Source of the DNA: an uncultured Fibrobacterota bacterium
Lineage (GTDB): Bacteria > Fibrobacterota > Chitinivibrionia > Chitinivibrionales > FEN-1185
Length of the DNA: 64,000 bases
NCBI GenBank assembly: GCA_963753345.1
Contig: CAVWBU010000041.1
Coordinates: forward strand, 192,001 to 256,000
Reading direction: 5' to 3'
Numbering within the stretch: position 1 is the first letter of the stretch; each line of letters begins with the position of its first letter. Made by a program: the position numbers and the translations under genes. Below the pieces are notes generated by a model. It did not search any database, had not been told where the DNA came from, and was given only the letters and a program-made list of their open reading frames with translations. Shown here in pieces: positions 56,709 to 63,098 of the stretch.

Positions 56709-56812
56709 TTCGGCCTTGCCACAGACCCAACCACGCTGCACCCCGCGAAGCTCCTAAAAGAATTTGAATTTATTGGTTTAATTGTGGCAATTCTCCCCAT
56801 AGTCCGCATGCA

Positions 56813-58168
56813 ATGACAAACACATCACCAAAACAAACCCTCGGCGGCGTGGACATCGGCTCCCCGATTCTTCGTCAAGCACTTGTCTACAGCCTCTGCG
56901 ACGGCATGTTCGCCTCGGTGATGACCGCCCTTGCCGAAACGTTTTCGGTGGCCGCGGCCGTGCGCCTGCAGGCGCCCGCAATGACCATTGCGCTGCTGGG
57001 CAGCGGGCCGCTTCTGGTGGGCTCGGTTGGTCAATTCCTTTTGCCGCTGTTTCTTGACAAAAGGCATTCGCGCAAACACTATGTGGTCGCCAGCGTGCGC
57101 GTTCAGGCGATGTTTCTGATACTGGCGGGCCTCACGGGCTGGCTCCCCCCACCGCTCAACGCCTGGGCCTACGTATTCGCCTTTGTGCTCTACGGCTCGT
57201 CGGGAAACCTCTTTGCAGGGATCTGGACATCGTGGCTGCGCGACTGCGTCCCGCCCGCGGTTCGCGGAAGGCATTTCGCCTGGAGAAACAGGTTCTTCGC
57301 GCTCACGCAATTGCTGTGCGCGATAACCGTCGGCGTGCTATCGCGCAAATACAGCTCCCAGAACGCGCCCTGGATGTTCTTTACGGTAATCTTTTTCGTC
57401 GGGAGCCTTTTCCGGTTCGGTTCGGCGCAGTTTCTGTCGATGCAATACGAGCCGAACCCGTCCTGCCTGCCGGACAGATCCCAGGTGTTCGGCTTCAGGC
57501 CTTCAAAGAACTTCCTGTGGTTCTGTGCCTCGGTCGCGCTTTTACAGGGGACCACGGCCATTGCAGGGCCGTTCTTCAACGTGTGGTTTCTCCGCGACCT
57601 CAGGTTCGATTACCTGACCTTCACCATAGGGACTGCGTCCATGATCGTCGGGACCATCGCGTTCCTGCCGGTCTGGGGCAGGCTTGTCGACGCGGTAGGA
57701 ACGTCGCGCGTGCTGCGGATAACCGCGCTCATGTGCGCGTTTGTGCCCGTTCCGTATCTGTTCGGCTCCACCCCGCTCGTGGTGTGGCTGTCCAACTTCT
57801 ATTCGGGCATTTCGTGGGGCGGGTTCAACATTGCAAATGTCAACTACCTGCTGCACATGACCGAAAAGGACAAATCGGACCACTACATCGGATTCGCGGC
57901 GGCCGTCACCGCGGTATCGATGTTCGTGTTCAGCCTGCTTGGCGGCTTTCTTTCCACCAGGCTCCCCCTTCTGTTCAGCTATGGGCTTCAGACGCTCTTC
58001 TTCGTTTCCTTTGCGGCGCGGCTTGTGGTGGTCCTGTTCTTCTTCAGGAAGTTCCGCCAGCCCCAGATGAGAGTGGAGGCGGGCGCAGTCGAACTTGTCA
58101 ATGAGGCGGGCTGGTACAGACTGGGAATGGAAATCATACGGCAGGTGTTCAGGCCGGTGGGGAAATAG
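56813..58168 (+). CDS. MFS transporter
   Basis: About 12 hydrophobic segments; PPAVRGRHFAWR; WGRLVDAVG. Confidence 0.88.
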   Translation: MTNTSPKQTLGGVDIGSPILRQALVYSLCDGMFASVMTALAETFSVAAAVRLQAPAMTIALLGSGPLLVGSVGQFLLPLFLDKRHSRKHYVVASVRVQAMFLILAGLTGWLPPPLNAWAYVFAFVLYGSSGNLFAGIWTSWLRDCVPPAVRGRHFAWRNRFFALTQLLCAITVGVLSRKYSSQNAPWMFFTVIFFVGSLFRFGSAQFLSMQYEPNPSCLPDRSQVFGFRPSKNFLWFCASVALLQGTTAIAGPFFNVWFLRDLRFDYLTFTIGTASMIVGTIAFLPVWGRLVDAVGTSRVLRITALMCAFVPVPYLFGSTPLVVWLSNFYSGISWGGFNIANVNYLLHMTEKDKSDHYIGFAAAVTAVSMFVFSLLGGFLSTRLPLLFSYGLQTLFFVSFAARLVVVLFFFRKFRQPQMRVEAGAVELVNEAGWYRLGMEIIRQVFRPVGK

Positions 58169-58171
58169 GTT

Positions 58172-58663
58172 ATGCCTTGGTATCTCCGCATCCTGGTCGG
58201 CACGTCGCCGCGGCGAACGCTCGTTCGCACGGCAATCGTTGCCGTTGTCGCCTTTGTCCTTTTCCGGTACTTCTTCATCCCCATTCACCTGGCGGGCGCA
58301 AGCATGGAACCTGCGTTTAAGGACGGGTCGGTGAACATCGTCAACACGTTCAGCTACAGGTTCCGGCCGCCAAGCCGGGGTGACGTGGCAGCGATAAGAT
58401 TGGCTGGCACCCGGGTGATGCTCTTCAAGCGGATCGTAGGGCTGCCGGGCGAGCGCATCGGGTTTCGCAACGGGGTCCTTATTGTCAACGGCCGCGAATG
58501 GCCGGAGCCCTATGTCGTATACCGCGAGAAGTGGAACATGCCGGAGGTGACGGTGGGCAGCGGAGAGTATTTTGTCGTCGGCGACAATCGCGGCACCGAT
58601 ATTTCGGGCCACGCGCTGGGAAGGGTTGACAAACGCAGGATCGTGGGAGGGCCGCTGTTTTGA
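58172..58663 (+). CDS. lepB: Signal peptidase I
   Basis: GASMEP (Ser), FKRIVGLPGE (Lys), YFVVGDNR. Confidence 0.88.
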   Translation: MPWYLRILVGTSPRRTLVRTAIVAVVAFVLFRYFFIPIHLAGASMEPAFKDGSVNIVNTFSYRFRPPSRGDVAAIRLAGTRVMLFKRIVGLPGERIGFRNGVLIVNGREWPEPYVVYREKWNMPEVTVGSGEYFVVGDNRGTDISGHALGRVDKRRIVGGPLF

Positions 58664-59169
58664 GAATACCGGGAAAGGCAGTTGCTGTTGTCGTCCTGAT
58701 GGCGGCCGCGGCCGTGGTGGTGTGGCTCGTGACCCAGGACTGGGACCAGCGCCGCATCCGTAAGAACCTCGACCGCCTGGCCGCAGCCGCGTACAAGCCG
58801 CGGGGCGCGGCTATCGAAGGCATGGACCTTTTCAAGCGCGTCGCAATCATCCAATCGCTTTTCACCACGGACTGCGTGATTTCCGCGGGCGAGCCTGCTC
58901 CGGAGATGAAAGGAACGGACGAGCTGTGCGCGCTATTCGCACAGGGAATCAAGACGGTTAAGGAGCTCAAGATCCTCTTCAAGGACGTATCGGTGACCGT
59001 GGCGCCCGATCATCTAAGCGCAACAGCCGCCATGACCGTGGAAGCGATCGGCGAGGACTTTTCGGAAGGCAATAGAAAATTCGACGCGAGAGAAGTCGAG
59101 GTGGCCTGGAAAAAAAATGAAGGCAAGTGGAAAATAGCGGGGGTGAAGGAGGTGCAGACACTTCATTAA
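58660..59169 (+). CDS. Membrane-anchored NTF2/SnoaL-like protein
   Basis: N-terminal TM helix; C-terminal WKKNEGKWKI typical of NTF2-like folds. Confidence 0.6.
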   Translation: MRIPGKAVAVVVLMAAAAVVVWLVTQDWDQRRIRKNLDRLAAAAYKPRGAAIEGMDLFKRVAIIQSLFTTDCVISAGEPAPEMKGTDELCALFAQGIKTVKELKILFKDVSVTVAPDHLSATAAMTVEAIGEDFSEGNRKFDAREVEVAWKKNEGKWKIAGVKEVQTLH

Positions 59170-59212
59170 GATTGAAAAAGTTTGCCGCGAGTGAAGAGTA
59201 CGGAGACTTGGA

Positions 59213-59752
59213 CTATGATGAAAGTAGTTGCCTGTTAGCAGTTAGGATATTCAAGTTTGTGGATGAAAAATCTGAATCATCTGTTATCAGTGTAAGATTA
59301 TTTTCCCCACATATGCTTTCGATCACTTGGTCATTAAAGTCGGTTGTTCCGGTCTCCATATGTTGGAGCATGCTGTCAATATCTAGTGTGAGGAATTTTG
59401 ACTCCACTCGTGTGCAATAGGCAAGTATGCTGTTTACTGCTTGCCTTAAATCCACCACAACCGAAGTAAAAGTGGGAGTCCTTCTGAACTCCTTGAAACC
59501 AATATTTCTGTTACCGGTTTGCACCTGTTCAAGTTTTGCGTATCGATATACAAATTCAGACAGTACAATCAAGTCTATGTATACGGCACAGCTCATGTTG
59601 CACATATTGCGCCATGCGGCCGAGTAAATACGTGTTCTTCGAGGTGTGGCTGGTGATGGACCATACACAAGTAGCCATATGTTTGCATCAAGAAAAATGC
59701 GCTCGTTTGCTAAAAAAGTATAAGTTTCTATGTCCTGTACGTTTCTACTCAT
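59213..59752 (-). CDS. PIN-domain ribonuclease
   Basis: IFLDANIW, VLSEF, DFNDQVI, LITDDSDF acidic tetrad. Confidence 0.88.
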   Translation of the reverse strand: MSRNVQDIETYTFLANERIFLDANIWLLVYGPSPATPRRTRIYSAAWRNMCNMSCAVYIDLIVLSEFVYRYAKLEQVQTGNRNIGFKEFRRTPTFTSVVVDLRQAVNSILAYCTRVESKFLTLDIDSMLQHMETGTTDFNDQVIESICGENNLTLITDDSDFSSTNLNILTANRQLLSS

Positions 59753-60101
59753 CACTACCCAACTCCTGTTTCGCAGCTTCCTGATAGCGTTGTGGATTTT
59801 TGAAGAAATCCTTTGCCCTATCCACTACCCTCTTGAGGATGATAAGGTCTTCCGGTTTAGCATCAATTGGAGGAAGCATAGTCTCCTTTAATCTCTCTTC
59901 ACTAAAAGTCCCATAGAGTTGCCCAACGGCACTATTAAGGAAGGATGATGTAAGGTCCCTTACTCCATCAAATGAAAGGCGGACTTTGTCACCTTTGTCA
60001 AGAGCGGTTTTTATCCGTGTGTAGACTACCTCACCGTCCTTGGCAGACACACATAGGCCGTCCTTTATGTCGAATGCGATTTTAACGACTTCTTCGTTCA
60101 T
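59745..60101 (-). CDS. Stand-alone STAS-like (DUF4325-like) protein
   Basis: VRLSFDGVRDLTSSFLNSAVGQLY; overlaps the PIN start by 8 nt. Confidence 0.8.
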   Translation of the reverse strand: MNEEVVKIAFDIKDGLCVSAKDGEVVYTRIKTALDKGDKVRLSFDGVRDLTSSFLNSAVGQLYGTFSEERLKETMLPPIDAKPEDLIILKRVVDRAKDFFKNPQRYQEAAKQELGSDE

Positions 60102-60130
60102 ACAGGGTGATTCTCCTTCTGATACTGATG

Positions 60131-61030
60131 CTAAAATATACTATTCGGGTCAACTTCCTCCGCAAGGCAATACGACCTCTTGTCAGCTGTATTTATTTCT
60201 ATATTGACTATAGTACCCGGGAAACTCTTGCAGAGCGTTCTAAGCGACTCCTTGTTGTCATGAAAGCACCAGTATCCAGAATCGGAAACAATAAGGATTT
60301 TGCCGCCATTGAGCGTAATGAATTCTTTGATTAGCTTAAGCCCCAATCCACCAGGCCTTCCTTCTGTTGTTTTCTTAGTAGTATTATTCTCTTGGAGCGT
60401 CCACCTTATGGCTTCCTTGGATGTAAGATCAAGCCCCAATTCATTGAATATGTTCTTACGCATACCAATTCCGAGGTCAACAATCGAGAAATCCAAACGG
60501 TTCTGCTTGGGAAAATACTGTCCGCAAGCAAAGATGCCCCTTTCACCTGTAGACGAATGGTCCACCGCATTCTGATATAGTTCGGCGATGCTTTCCCTGA
60601 ATTTCTTATGGAGGGCCTCACTCATGTTTGGTATCCCTTTGCCCACAAAATGCTTAGCAATATACTCTCTAAATACCTCCGTCTTACCAATTTCAAATCT
60701 CTGATATTCAATGGTAGTTCCTTCCAAATCTTTCTCTCTTGGTACGTCAAAACCAAAATTGGTAAGAAAACCATTAATTGATAGCTCGTTTCGTAAACCG
60801 TGCCTCATTTTGAAAAGCCTGATATTTCCGCGACCTACAAAATGGAAAAGAATGGCGCCAAAGGGAGCACACATGTTCGCATCCATCCAATCCACTCCAG
60901 CCATATTAATCTCTAGCGTGCCATCATGGCGCGCTTGTACAGTGTGGTATAGCTTAATGATCCGTTCAAAGCCTTTCAAATCCGTGTAGATGGATCGTAT
61001 TGAGATTTTCATATTGGGATCTTTAACCAA
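60131..61030 (-). CDS. GHKL/HATPase_c ATP-binding protein (anti-sigma kinase-like) with STAS-like N-terminus
   Basis: N box ELYQNAVDH, G1 DLGIG, G2 GGLGL, G3 PGT; no HisKA helix. Start is 61030 (TTG) or 61012 (ATG). Confidence 0.8.
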   Translation of the reverse strand: MVKDPNMKISIRSIYTDLKGFERIIKLYHTVQARHDGTLEINMAGVDWMDANMCAPFGAILFHFVGRGNIRLFKMRHGLRNELSINGFLTNFGFDVPREKDLEGTTIEYQRFEIGKTEVFREYIAKHFVGKGIPNMSEALHKKFRESIAELYQNAVDHSSTGERGIFACGQYFPKQNRLDFSIVDLGIGMRKNIFNELGLDLTSKEAIRWTLQENNTTKKTTEGRPGGLGLKLIKEFITLNGGKILIVSDSGYWCFHDNKESLRTLCKSFPGTIVNIEINTADKRSYCLAEEVDPNSIF

Positions 61031-61249
61031 AAGCCTAATTTGGTATATCGGCCAACCGGTTAAGAGAAAGTAGAAATTGGAGTTGTTGCGCTCAGGCTAA
61101 TGGGATTTTTTGCGCGCCATGGCAGTATGTATATTCAAGAAACTCAAATTCGTCGCATTCAGGGCAATAATATAGTATTTCTGCGTTGGTTGTTTGCTTT
61201 TTTCCATTCGGAAATACCTACAGGCGATTCACATAATCGAGGTAATGTG

Positions 61250-61573
61250 GTGGCTACCAATTTAGAAATCGGAATGGCTGGCGAAAAAGCTGTTGTCGAC
61301 TACCTAAGAGATGCGAAAGGGTTTTCCAATATTATTTGGGATACCACACAGTCTGGCGCATCAGACATAGAGGCTGTGGGAAGCAAAGTTCGGCTCCTCA
61401 TCCAGGTAAAGACAAGCGTTCACCCGGACAAACCTGTGCAACTAAGCAGTGAAGAACTAAGTGCAATAATATCCCGCGCATCTGCGAAAGTAGCACAGGC
61501 ATGGGAGGCCAGAGTTGTGCTGGATCGCAATCTAAAACCCAAGGGTGACGTTGAGTGGAGAAGGCTCTCGTAG
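61250..61573 (+). CDS. Small PD-(D/E)XK nuclease (Hjc/YraN/Mrr-like)
   Basis: GMAGEKAVVDYL..GF..SDIEA..LLIQVK; likely GTG start after GAGGT. Confidence 0.7.
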   Translation: MATNLEIGMAGEKAVVDYLRDAKGFSNIIWDTTQSGASDIEAVGSKVRLLIQVKTSVHPDKPVQLSSEELSAIISRASAKVAQAWEARVVLDRNLKPKGDVEWRRLS

Positions 61574-61603
61574 ACCGATGGGCGTTTTCTTTCTTAACTC
61601 AGC

Positions 61604-62959
61604 CTACGCTTTCGTTCCCAGCCCGACGCCGCAGTAAACGGCCACTTTCGCGCGGAATGCCGCGTCGTAAATCCTGCGTCCGTCGATGATGACGGAACGC
61701 TTCATGAGCCTGTTGAACGTTTCCGCGCCCAGTTTCTTGAACTCATCCCATTCCGTGACCACGATACAGCAATCGGCCCCTTTGAGGCATTCCTCCGTGC
61801 TTGACGCATAGGAAATCCTTATCGTGTCCTTGATGAACTTCTTCTTGGCATTGGGAATGGCCACCGGATCATAGGCGACGACATCAGCATCTTCGGAAAA
61901 GAGATGGTTTGCTATCTTGACGGCAGGCGACTCTCTCATGTCATCGGTTCCCGGCTTGAAGGAAAGTCCGAGCAGGGCGATCCGCTTCCCCTTGAGGTCA
62001 CCGAGCGCCTTGCGCGCGAGGCTGACAACATGAGTTGCCTGCTCGATATTGACTTCCTCAACAGTCTCAAGAATGGCGGGTTCGATCTGCCTCAGTTGGG
62101 CGAAGGAGATGAGCGCCTTCACGTCCTTGGGGAAACAGGAACCGCCGTAGCCGGCCCCGGCGTTGAGAAAGACCGGATTGATGCGCCAGTCCGCGCCGAT
62201 GCCCTTGACGACTTCGTAAATGTCGATTCCCGGAATGGTCTCCGCAATCCTGGCCATCTCATTGATATATGAGATATTCATGGCCAGAAACGTGTTGCGG
62301 CCGTACTTGACCATCTCCGCGCTTTCCAGGTTCATCCGGAGCACGGGCACCTTCTGGCCCTTGTACAGTTCATTCGCGAATTCCTCCAGGAAATCTCCGG
62401 ACCTTGTGTCGAACTCACCGACAACCACGCTGTCGGGTTGAGAGGTGTCCTTAACCGCCGCTCCCTGTCGCAGGAACTCTGGACTCATGCAGACGCCGAA
62501 GTCCTTTCCCGCTTTTTTTCCGGAATGTTCTTCAAGAAGGGGAATGATGACATTGCGAGTCGTGCCCGGGACTATGGTACTGCGGGCAACGATAACGGAG
62601 TATTTGTCCTTTTTCTTCAGGGCCTTCCCTATTGCAATTGCGGTGTCCCTGACAAGGCTCAAATCCGCTTCTCCGCTCACCAGGCTTGGCGTGCCAACGG
62701 CGATGAAGCAGATATCGGCATTCAGGACCGCCTCCTCCCGACCGTGCACCGCCCTGAGCGTGCCTTTCTTCACCGTCCTGGCAATGATAGGCTCAAGATC
62801 ATTCTCAAAGAAGGGCGCTTTGCCCGCATTGATGGTGTCGACTTTTTCCTTGTCCTGGCTCGACGTAAGGACTTTGAAATCCCTGTCCGCGAATACCGCC
62901 GCCGCGACCAGTCCCACATACCCGGTTCCCAGGATCGCGATGCATTTTCCCTTTGCCAT
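61604..62959 (-). CDS. ugd: UDP-glucose 6-dehydrogenase
   Basis: GTGYVG, AVGTP, PEFLRQG, GYGGSCFPKD, FKPGTDDMRESP, IDGR. Confidence 0.95.
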   Translation of the reverse strand: MAKGKCIAILGTGYVGLVAAAVFADRDFKVLTSSQDKEKVDTINAGKAPFFENDLEPIIARTVKKGTLRAVHGREEAVLNADICFIAVGTPSLVSGEADLSLVRDTAIAIGKALKKKDKYSVIVARSTIVPGTTRNVIIPLLEEHSGKKAGKDFGVCMSPEFLRQGAAVKDTSQPDSVVVGEFDTRSGDFLEEFANELYKGQKVPVLRMNLESAEMVKYGRNTFLAMNISYINEMARIAETIPGIDIYEVVKGIGADWRINPVFLNAGAGYGGSCFPKDVKALISFAQLRQIEPAILETVEEVNIEQATHVVSLARKALGDLKGKRIALLGLSFKPGTDDMRESPAVKIANHLFSEDADVVAYDPVAIPNAKKKFIKDTIRISYASSTEECLKGADCCIVVTEWDEFKKLGAETFNRLMKRSVIIDGRRIYDAAFRAKVAVYCGVGLGTKA

Positions 62960-63098
62960 GACGAAGCTCCTTTGCAGATATGGAATGATAACACCAAGAA
63001 ATTTCTGATTCAGGCCGAAGAAAGATCTTGACTGATAGGCATTATTATTTTCGGAAGCGGGCGGAAGTGTTCGGTATTGGCTGATTTCAAGACTAGAT

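Follow-up and report, generated by a model that had tools for sequence, protein, structure and literature searches.

A probable VapKSC kinase, antitoxin and PIN toxin operon on a low-GC islet of an uncultured Fibrobacterota bacterium

The 64-kb window considered here is the whole stretch of DNA that was analyzed, positions 192,001 to 256,000 of contig CAVWBU010000041.1 (assembly GCA_963753345.1), and it comes from an uncultured Fibrobacterota bacterium. According to its list of open reading frames (ORFs), three genes for a kinase, a STAS protein and a PIN nuclease lie on the minus strand within 59213-61030 of the window. It is very likely, with a probability of roughly 85%, that these genes belong to the VapKSC family of three-gene toxin-antitoxin and anti-phage modules, are carried on a small horizontally acquired islet and act by the published mechanism. 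The VapKSC system was already described in 2026, and the window copy adds a member to it and is not a novel system. A sequence-only reading of the same DNA had stated that no characterized system with this architecture was known, and had named a match to a characterized system as grounds for giving up its proposal. The operon matches vapKSC (PMC13373217, PDB 9z7o), so the claim of novelty falls.

The three proteins and the VapKSC family

The vapKSC operon was described in Escherichia sp. E4736 by Chambers, Rani, Min, Villa and Corbett (EMBO J 2026;45:5079, PMC13373217; preprint February 2026). In the literature library searched, the name VapKSC was found in that paper and its preprint only. 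The paper reports a VapS2-VapC2 crystal structure at 3.4 Å (PDB 9z7o), in which a conserved serine, S48, is buried at the interface. The Escherichia VapC is reported to be toxic, and the D28A substitution abolishes the toxicity. VapS rescues cells from VapC, whereas VapS with S48E or with a C-terminal deletion does not. With the whole operon, protection against phage Bas42 amounts to about 2 logs, and this is lost in VapC D28A, VapS S48A and VapK F54A. F54 is a conserved aromatic residue in the STAS domain of the Escherichia VapK and is proposed in the paper to contact single-stranded DNA (ssDNA).

The window proteins were compared with this system by means of their relatives. Profile A1, an alignment of 25 VapK homologues, identified 386 stretches that encode a VapK relative in a collection of bacteria and archaea with one genome per species. 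The best 80 of these 386 stretches are the loci L001-L080, to which all counts out of 80 refer.

The window VapS was assigned to Pfam PF14213 (DUF4325, 'STAS-like') at 1.4e-15. Its family profile, from alignment A2 (the window and 49 of the 80 loci), matched chain 9z7o_A, 'Escherichia VapS', among the PDB sequences with an E value of 2.8e-22 over positions 3-117 of 119, and the window VapS by itself matched the same chain at 2.2e-8. In the HMMER alignment, Ser52 of the window VapS, which lies in an LTSSF motif, falls on chain residue 66 of 9z7o_A. This residue is native S48, because the 134-residue chain has 18 residues more than the 116 of the native protein. Of 81 sequences, 72 have S and 9 have T at position 52. 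In an alignment with an invariant core, the acceptor serine opens the second STAS helix. The sequence-only reading had described a stand-alone STAS protein with serine or threonine at the acceptor position, and the alignment of S52 with S48 bears this out. It had also held that the antitoxin does not bind DNA. No AbrB, RHH, PHD or HTH domain was found in VapS, whose matches in Pfam and among the PDB sequences are DUF4325 and the solved VapS only.

The toxin is connected to the Escherichia protein through its family. The window VapC carries a Pfam PIN match (3.4e-5). The profile of alignment A3, which holds the window and 48 of the 77 loci with a vapC, matched chain 9z7o_C, 'Escherichia VapC', with an E value of 2.8e-12, and it aligned D23 of the window protein to the catalytic D28. 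Residues D23, E67, D139, D142 and D160 are invariant wherever they are covered (77-78 of 78 sequences), and N141 is invariant in A3 as well. The start of vapC, which is either GTG 59755 or ATG 59752, overlaps the stop of vapS. An intact PIN gene overlapping the STAS stop, as read from the letters, is thus found.

The kinase has two domains. Residues 143-251 of VapK match Pfam HATPase_c (5.5e-7) and HisKA was not found. The AlphaFold2 (AF2) model of the 293-aa protein has a pLDDT of 88 and a pTM of 0.87. When its domains were compared exhaustively with VIA-align, residues 97-278 were nearest to SpoIIAB (1l0o_A; Z 13.2, rmsd 3.0, 137 of 141 residues aligned), and the next row had a Z of 9.7. Residues 1-89 form a STAS domain in the model and match RsbV (6m36_B; Z 9.7, rmsd 2.3, 86 aligned), with further VIA-align matches to TM1442 (Z 9.6), RsbS (Z 8.2) and SpoIIAA (Z 8.1). 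The earlier description of a GHKL ATPase with a STAS-like N-terminus and no HisKA domain therefore agrees with the Pfam match and with the RsbV-like fold. The ATP-binding motifs are invariant in all 25 aligned sequences: E144, N148, H152 and S153 of the N box, D179, G181 and G183 of G1, and G221, G222 and G224 of G2. VapK's own STAS domain has a non-phosphorylatable A-N at the position of the antagonists' acceptor serine. Two positions of VapK are possible candidates for the counterpart of Escherichia F54: W42, which does not vary in the 25 aligned sequences, and position 51, where F or L is found.

Other searches with the window proteins were less specific. The VapK profile against the PDB sequences gave weak matches of the N-terminal part to TM1442 (0.032) and RsbS (0.23), and histidine kinases for the C-terminal part. 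A Foldseek search of the two-domain VapK model against the PDB returned generic GHKL proteins only (Topo VI-B, Hsp90/TRAP1 and histidine kinases; E ~4e-5, TM 0.2-0.3). NCBIfam gave far-sub-threshold histidine-kinase and VapC matches only. PADLOC v2.0.0 did not assign the three proteins and the small ORF beside them to any system and matched only the GHKL region of DrmA (1.3e-3), a null result that says nothing because the v2.0.0 library predates the VapKSC paper.

What the window operon shares with the Escherichia VapKSC is the homology of VapS and VapC, the correspondence of S52 with S48 and of D23 with D28, and an antitoxin that has no DNA-binding domain. By the features that mark the family, it has three genes in one operon on one strand, a VapK with STAS and GHKL domains, homology to the solved VapS, the acceptor serine and the catalytic aspartate of the PIN domain. 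It differs in that it belongs to a distant branch, stands alone on an islet with an extra gene for an Hjc-like nuclease, and is known here from sequence and fold. A second comparison is possible with the triad on plasmid P5 of Deinococcus gobiensis I-0, which RefSeq annotates as ATP-binding, STAS-like and PIN proteins. The window VapK is 32% identical to its counterpart over 99% of the length (E 1e-42), VapS is 40% identical (E 9e-23) and VapC is 27% identical (E 2e-23). Dataset EV3 of the VapKSC paper includes the genome of D. gobiensis I-0, and the P5 triad is assumed to be that entry. No Fibrobacter-named genome appears in Dataset EV3.

Four other known systems resemble parts of the operon. 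The CapK/CapS pair discussed in the VapKSC paper shares a kinase with STAS and GHKL domains and a STAS substrate with a conserved serine. According to that paper, CapK is activated by ssDNA and phosphorylates CapS directly; CapK has an N-terminal HTH, and CapS has a wHTH and represses a downstream immune operon. Neither of these DNA-binding domains is present in the window proteins, and the kinase-STAS pair of the window is followed by a PIN toxin instead. Membership in CapKS was rejected, since no HTH family was matched by VapK in Pfam, its model opens with a STAS strand at residue 2, and the 118-aa VapS consists of DUF4325 and a helical tail only.

The SpoIIAB-SpoIIAA and RsbW-RsbV modules are similar in that the window kinase domain is nearest to SpoIIAB, and both STAS domains resemble antagonists of the RsbV/SpoIIAA/TM1442 type. 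The window kinase differs from them by having its own STAS domain, and its proposed output is the release of a nuclease and not of a sigma factor. Neither a sigma factor nor a PP2C phosphatase gene was found in the islet by the ORF list and Pfam, and membership was rejected on these grounds.

Type II VapBC systems share a PIN toxin with acidic active-site residues and a small upstream neutralizing protein (predicted here) with an overlapping junction. In the window, by contrast, the antitoxin has a STAS fold and a third gene, the kinase, is obligate. In addition, the VapKSC paper states that VapS does not displace the active-site Mg2+ of VapC. The operon was not placed among type II systems, as VapS has no autoregulatory DNA-binding domain. 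Finally, the description of the PIN.4 subgroup in Table 1 of Matelska, Steczkiewicz and Ginalski (NAR 2017, PMC5499597) fits the vapS-vapC pair. That account, as tabulated, includes neither a kinase nor a mechanism, and the window VapC is likened to it by description only.

Conservation of the triad

VapK has many relatives. In a library of 5.8 billion proteins, 901 were found at E <= 1e-3, nearly all of them about 290 aa long, and identity among the best 120 is 45-69%. The other two genes were called by searching every ORF of the 80 loci with the window proteins in phmmer. A vapS was present in every locus and a vapC in 77. In the three misses (L012, L050 and L075), the contig stops within vapS or shortly beyond it. 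The order kinase-STAS-PIN was kept in 73 of the 77 complete loci, and the STAS-PIN junction was mostly an overlap of 11-20 nt when starts were chosen near the upstream stop. In general the genes of the triad overlap or have little space between them. A recurrence of this kind is far beyond chance, and vapKSC is an obligate three-gene module. The conservation of the triplet, which had been put forward as a check on the sequence-only reading, therefore holds. As a separate observation, the order STAS-PIN-kinase on one strand occurs in the other four complete loci (L046, L063, L072 and L080), three of which are metagenome-assembled genomes (MAGs) of Thermodesulfobacteriota.

The loci span Nitrospirota, Binatia, Thermodesulfobacteriota, Planctomycetota, Elusimicrobiota, Poribacteria, Chloroflexota, Pseudomonadota and others. 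Complete triads were also seen in two archaeal MAGs of Methanothrix/Methanotrichaceae (L003 and L022). The text of the VapKSC paper speaks of 'diverse bacterial groups', but entries for Methanosarcina and Methanococcoides are already present in its Dataset EV3. In the plasmid and phage collections searched, only one of four plasmid matches and two of ten phage matches cover at least 80% of VapK, so that vapKSC is not mainly plasmid- or phage-borne in these collections.

Two prophages hold a related pair of genes. Streptococcus phage/prophage Javan172 (L084, 2396-3674) has a kinase-STAS pair with no PIN gene, located between a repressor region and an integrase. In the table given for the Francisella prophage KIRK (PMC7924643), a 293-aa protein adjoins a DUF4325 protein and no PIN gene is listed. 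The pairs consist of a kinase-like protein of about 300 aa and a DUF4325-type protein of about 112-114 aa. They may be effector-less or differently wired.

Mechanism and alternative readings

In the window copy the gene anatomy, the folds and the catalytic and acceptor residues are intact, and it belongs to a family with a strictly conserved triad and a patchy distribution. The published mechanism can be transferred to it in the following way. VapC would be kept inactive as a nuclease in a complex with VapS, and the C-terminal helix of VapS would reach toward the active site of the PIN domain. A stress signal, which in the published model is ssDNA from DNA damage or phage infection, would switch VapK on. 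Active VapK would phosphorylate Ser52 of VapS, a residue expected in the VapS-VapC interface. Phosphorylated VapS would then dissociate, and VapC would cleave cellular RNA and bring about growth arrest. By analogy with the Escherichia homologue, the VapS-VapC complex, the toxicity and rescue, the phosphomimetic effect and the protection against phage would carry over to the window copy. The phosphotransfer from VapK to VapS, the ssDNA signal and the RNA target are presumed steps, in the Escherichia system too.

Several points weigh against this reading. The window VapS is about 30% identical to the Escherichia VapS over the aligned stretch, which leaves room for differences of detail, for instance in what the C-terminal helix does. 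The window VapC alone had no match among the PDB sequences at E 0.01, and its link to 9z7o_C runs through the family profile only. A promoter and terminator scan gave 3 and 4 sites, where 4.3 and 3.1 were expected from shuffles, so that the sites do not exceed chance. Apart from a beta-galactosidase-type match, PADLOC found no defense gene among the 20 ORFs within about 10 kb of the operon. The paper itself reports that phosphorylation of VapS by VapK was not demonstrated directly, VapK being insoluble, and that binding of ssDNA by VapK could not be demonstrated; the ssDNA signal rests there on an AlphaFold3 (AF3) model and the F54A phenotype, and it was shown biochemically for CapK only. The sequence-only proposal of a kinase-STAS partner switch that controls an RNase equals the published vapKSC model, and it shares with that model a presumed phosphorylation step.

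The same proteins could act mainly as an addiction or stress toxin-antitoxin module, which stabilizes the islet or answers DNA damage and has no meaningful anti-phage role here. The position of the window copy outside a defense island suits such a role. The paper counts 289 vapKSC instances in IMG, 36% of them with a PADLOC immune gene no more than 10 kb away and 64% with none nearby. It treats the line between stress response and immunity as blurred, and the protection that it reports was demonstrated with a single phage. That protection against Bas42 nevertheless speaks for an immune function, and so do the neighbors of the family. These were surveyed by taking, on either side of vapKSC, the first ORF that reaches 100 aa, which gave 76 upstream and 74 downstream ORFs for the 80 loci. 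By hand classification of Pfam matches, an immediate neighbor of the restriction-modification (R-M), helicase-nuclease, OLD/AbiL-type ATPase, Schlafen or toxin type was found in 29 of the 80 loci, and many copies are nested in R-M operons. A mainly stabilizing or stress-related role is regarded as unlikely. A setting among defense genes, which the sequence-only reading had named as a check, is seen in part of the family and not at the window copy.

It is much less probable still that VapK acts on something other than the VapS serine. It could be an ATP-dependent binder that sequesters its partner, as SpoIIAB does with sigma F, or it could phosphorylate VapC or another target. The lack of a directly demonstrated phosphotransfer would allow this, and the non-phosphorylatable A-N in the STAS domain of VapK could compete with VapS. 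The predicted complex of VapK and VapS lends weak support to a direct partnership, with a score of 0.53 against 0.00 for the best control and no interface reported. At least 55% of contacts agreed between the runs and the partner pLDDT was at least 78. Of 157 solved complexes, 116 pass the mark set for such predictions, as do 2 of 215 mismatched pairs, and scores of 0.60 or below include 18 of the 157 solved complexes as well as both passing mismatches. Since similar SpoIIAB-SpoIIAA complexes are already solved, the VapK-VapS pass may reflect this likeness only. Phosphotransfer to VapS is nevertheless favored by an acceptor position that is S or T in each of the 81 sequences and by the invariant ATP-binding motifs, and the S48A and S48E phenotypes and the direct phosphorylation of CapS by CapK given in the paper point in the same direction.

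That the copy is a decaying, non-functional remnant of a mobile element is hardly credible: the islet is low in GC and foreign and no promoter stands above chance, but the three frames are open at full length, all invariant catalytic, ATP-binding and acceptor residues are kept and the translationally coupled junctions are preserved.

The islet and the neighbors of vapKSC elsewhere

The features of the window and the nested operons of other genomes are collected in Table 1. The longest ORF for vapK runs from 60131 to 61030 with a TTG start at 61030 and would encode 299 aa; the homologues begin at the ATG at 61012. The stop of vapK and the start of vapS are 29 nt apart, and an AAGGAG-type ribosome site precedes vapS.

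Table 1. Coordinates of the window features and of operons in which vapKSC is nested at other loci.
Feature	Coordinates	Strand	Details
vapK (STAS + GHKL kinase)	60131..61012	-	Window; ATG 61012 start, 293 aa; from ORF and homologue starts
vapS (predicted STAS/DUF4325 antitoxin)	59745..60101	-	Window; 118 aa; short helical C-terminal region
vapC (predicted PIN nuclease toxin)	59213..59755	-	Window; 180 aa; PIN.4 subgroup type
Small Hjc/Mrr_cat-like ORF	61100..61573	+	Window; conserved part 61244-61573; divergent from vapK
Low-GC islet, ~2.4 kb	59197..61603	strandless	Window; vapKSC + small nuclease gene; from GC profile and L001/G002/G005 comparisons
mod-vapK-vapS-vapC-res exactly	L042 2758-9483		PADLOC MTase_III ~1e-113, REase_III
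mod-vapK-vapS-vapC-res exactly	L057 2692-9470		PADLOC MTase_III ~1e-113, REase_III
mod-vapK-vapS-vapC-res exactly	L068 2905-8751		PADLOC MTase_III ~1e-113, REase_III
mod-vapK-vapS-vapC-res exactly	L071 2372-9002		PADLOC MTase_III ~1e-113, REase_III
HmaA-vapKSC-HmaB	L031 1420-9496		HmaB is a DUF1156 methylase; both junctions overlap

The vapKSC copy of the window forms an islet of its own, gained by horizontal transfer and set among housekeeping genes. Its GC content is 0.40-0.44 over 59200-61399, compared with 0.55-0.64 at 56800-58999 and 0.54-0.57 at 61400-62999. By Pfam, the flanks hold genes for an MFS transporter, a signal peptidase, a SnoaL-like protein and a UDP-glucose dehydrogenase (ugd). 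These values (0.40-0.44 versus 0.54-0.64 in the two flanks together) and the coordinates match the three tightly linked, AT-richer genes among housekeeping genes that had been noted from the sequence. The genome to which the window belongs carries a single copy of the operon. No copy turned up in the 40 relatives searched; 5 of these share the genus, 2 the family and 33 the order, and 29 of the 40 are at least 90% complete.

The edges of the islet were placed by comparison with other genomes. A Fibrobacteraceae MAG (L001), whose VapK is 69% identical, has the same four-gene cassette; window 61573-59222 corresponds to 1253-3580 of L001, and the flanks are unrelated. In the same-genus genome G002 homology stops at window 59171-59196, and in G005 the homology of the ugd flank starts at window 61611. 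The SnoaL-like flank is present in two of five relatives (G002 and G005). An empty, uninterrupted site was not found among the same-genus relatives, and it could not be shown because synteny breaks at the edges of the islet. The UDP-glucose dehydrogenase gene itself (61604-62959, minus strand) was seen at the DNA level in only one of four same-genus genomes (G005), on another contig than the left flank, which shows that the DNA around the islet varies too.

The fourth gene of the cassette appears, from its predicted structure, to encode a near-orphan protein with an Hjc-like PD-(D/E)xK nuclease fold. Pfam Hjc was matched at only 0.047. Its AF2 model has a pLDDT of 87, Foldseek places it with Hjc (2wcw, TM 0.66-0.68, E ~6e-4), and its protein-language-model neighbors belong to Mrr_cat/Hjc clusters (0.94-0.95). 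In the library of 5.8 billion proteins only two such proteins were identified, one of which is the window's own, in addition to the copy of L001. A homologue adjoins vapK divergently in one of the 80 loci, L001, so the small ORF is not a component of the vapKSC family. It is probably cargo of the islet.

At other loci vapKSC can be found inside the operons of other defense systems. The nearest upstream ORF is a gene of about 700-770 aa with Pfam N6_N4_Mtase in 10 loci, and its stop overlaps the start of vapK in 9 of them, all except L079. In L028, a 200-aa ORF with no Pfam family that belongs to the same BLAST cluster as the N6_N4_Mtase gene overlaps the vapK start. PADLOC identified the upstream methylase as MTase_III (~1e-110) in the 7 examined. 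The nearest downstream ORF is ResIII in 8 loci and starts 5-12 nt past vapC in 6 of these. REase_III was assigned by PADLOC to all 8 ResIII-cluster proteins examined, a set from which L037 was left out and in which the protein of L060 lies upstream of mod. At the four loci with the exact order mod-vapK-vapS-vapC-res, the end of mod overlaps the beginning of vapK, and the gap from vapC to res is 5-12 nt. Hma components flank vapKSC in L032, L038 and L067 as well as in L031. Further neighbors identified by PADLOC include Type IIG enzymes, PD-T4-4, IetAS, ZorD and AbiLi. Neither 'Type III' nor 'Hma' occurs in the main text of the VapKSC paper, and 'RM_type_III' does not occur in its supplements (PMC13373217). 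The placement of CapKS beside R-M systems is discussed in it.

A tentative interpretation, held to be possible but rather unlikely, is that vapKSC built into Type III mod-res and HmaA-HmaB operons forms a wired two-layer defense. Breaks or ssDNA from restriction, whether it fires or fails, would trigger VapK, and the PIN toxin would serve as a back-up abortive response. The Hjc-like nuclease of the window would then be a matching fourth component that generates the signal or has an accessory role.

By itself the window operon adds little. Its value is as a confirmation, in that the published mechanism was reconstructed from the sequence alone. The paper's count of IMG instances would suggest a smaller and less strictly conserved family than the one seen here, with 386 stretches and the triad in all 77 judgeable loci of the best 80. 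A soluble VapK from this conserved environmental branch could help, because the Escherichia VapK is insoluble. The nesting of vapKSC in Type III R-M and Hma operons may deserve a separate study.

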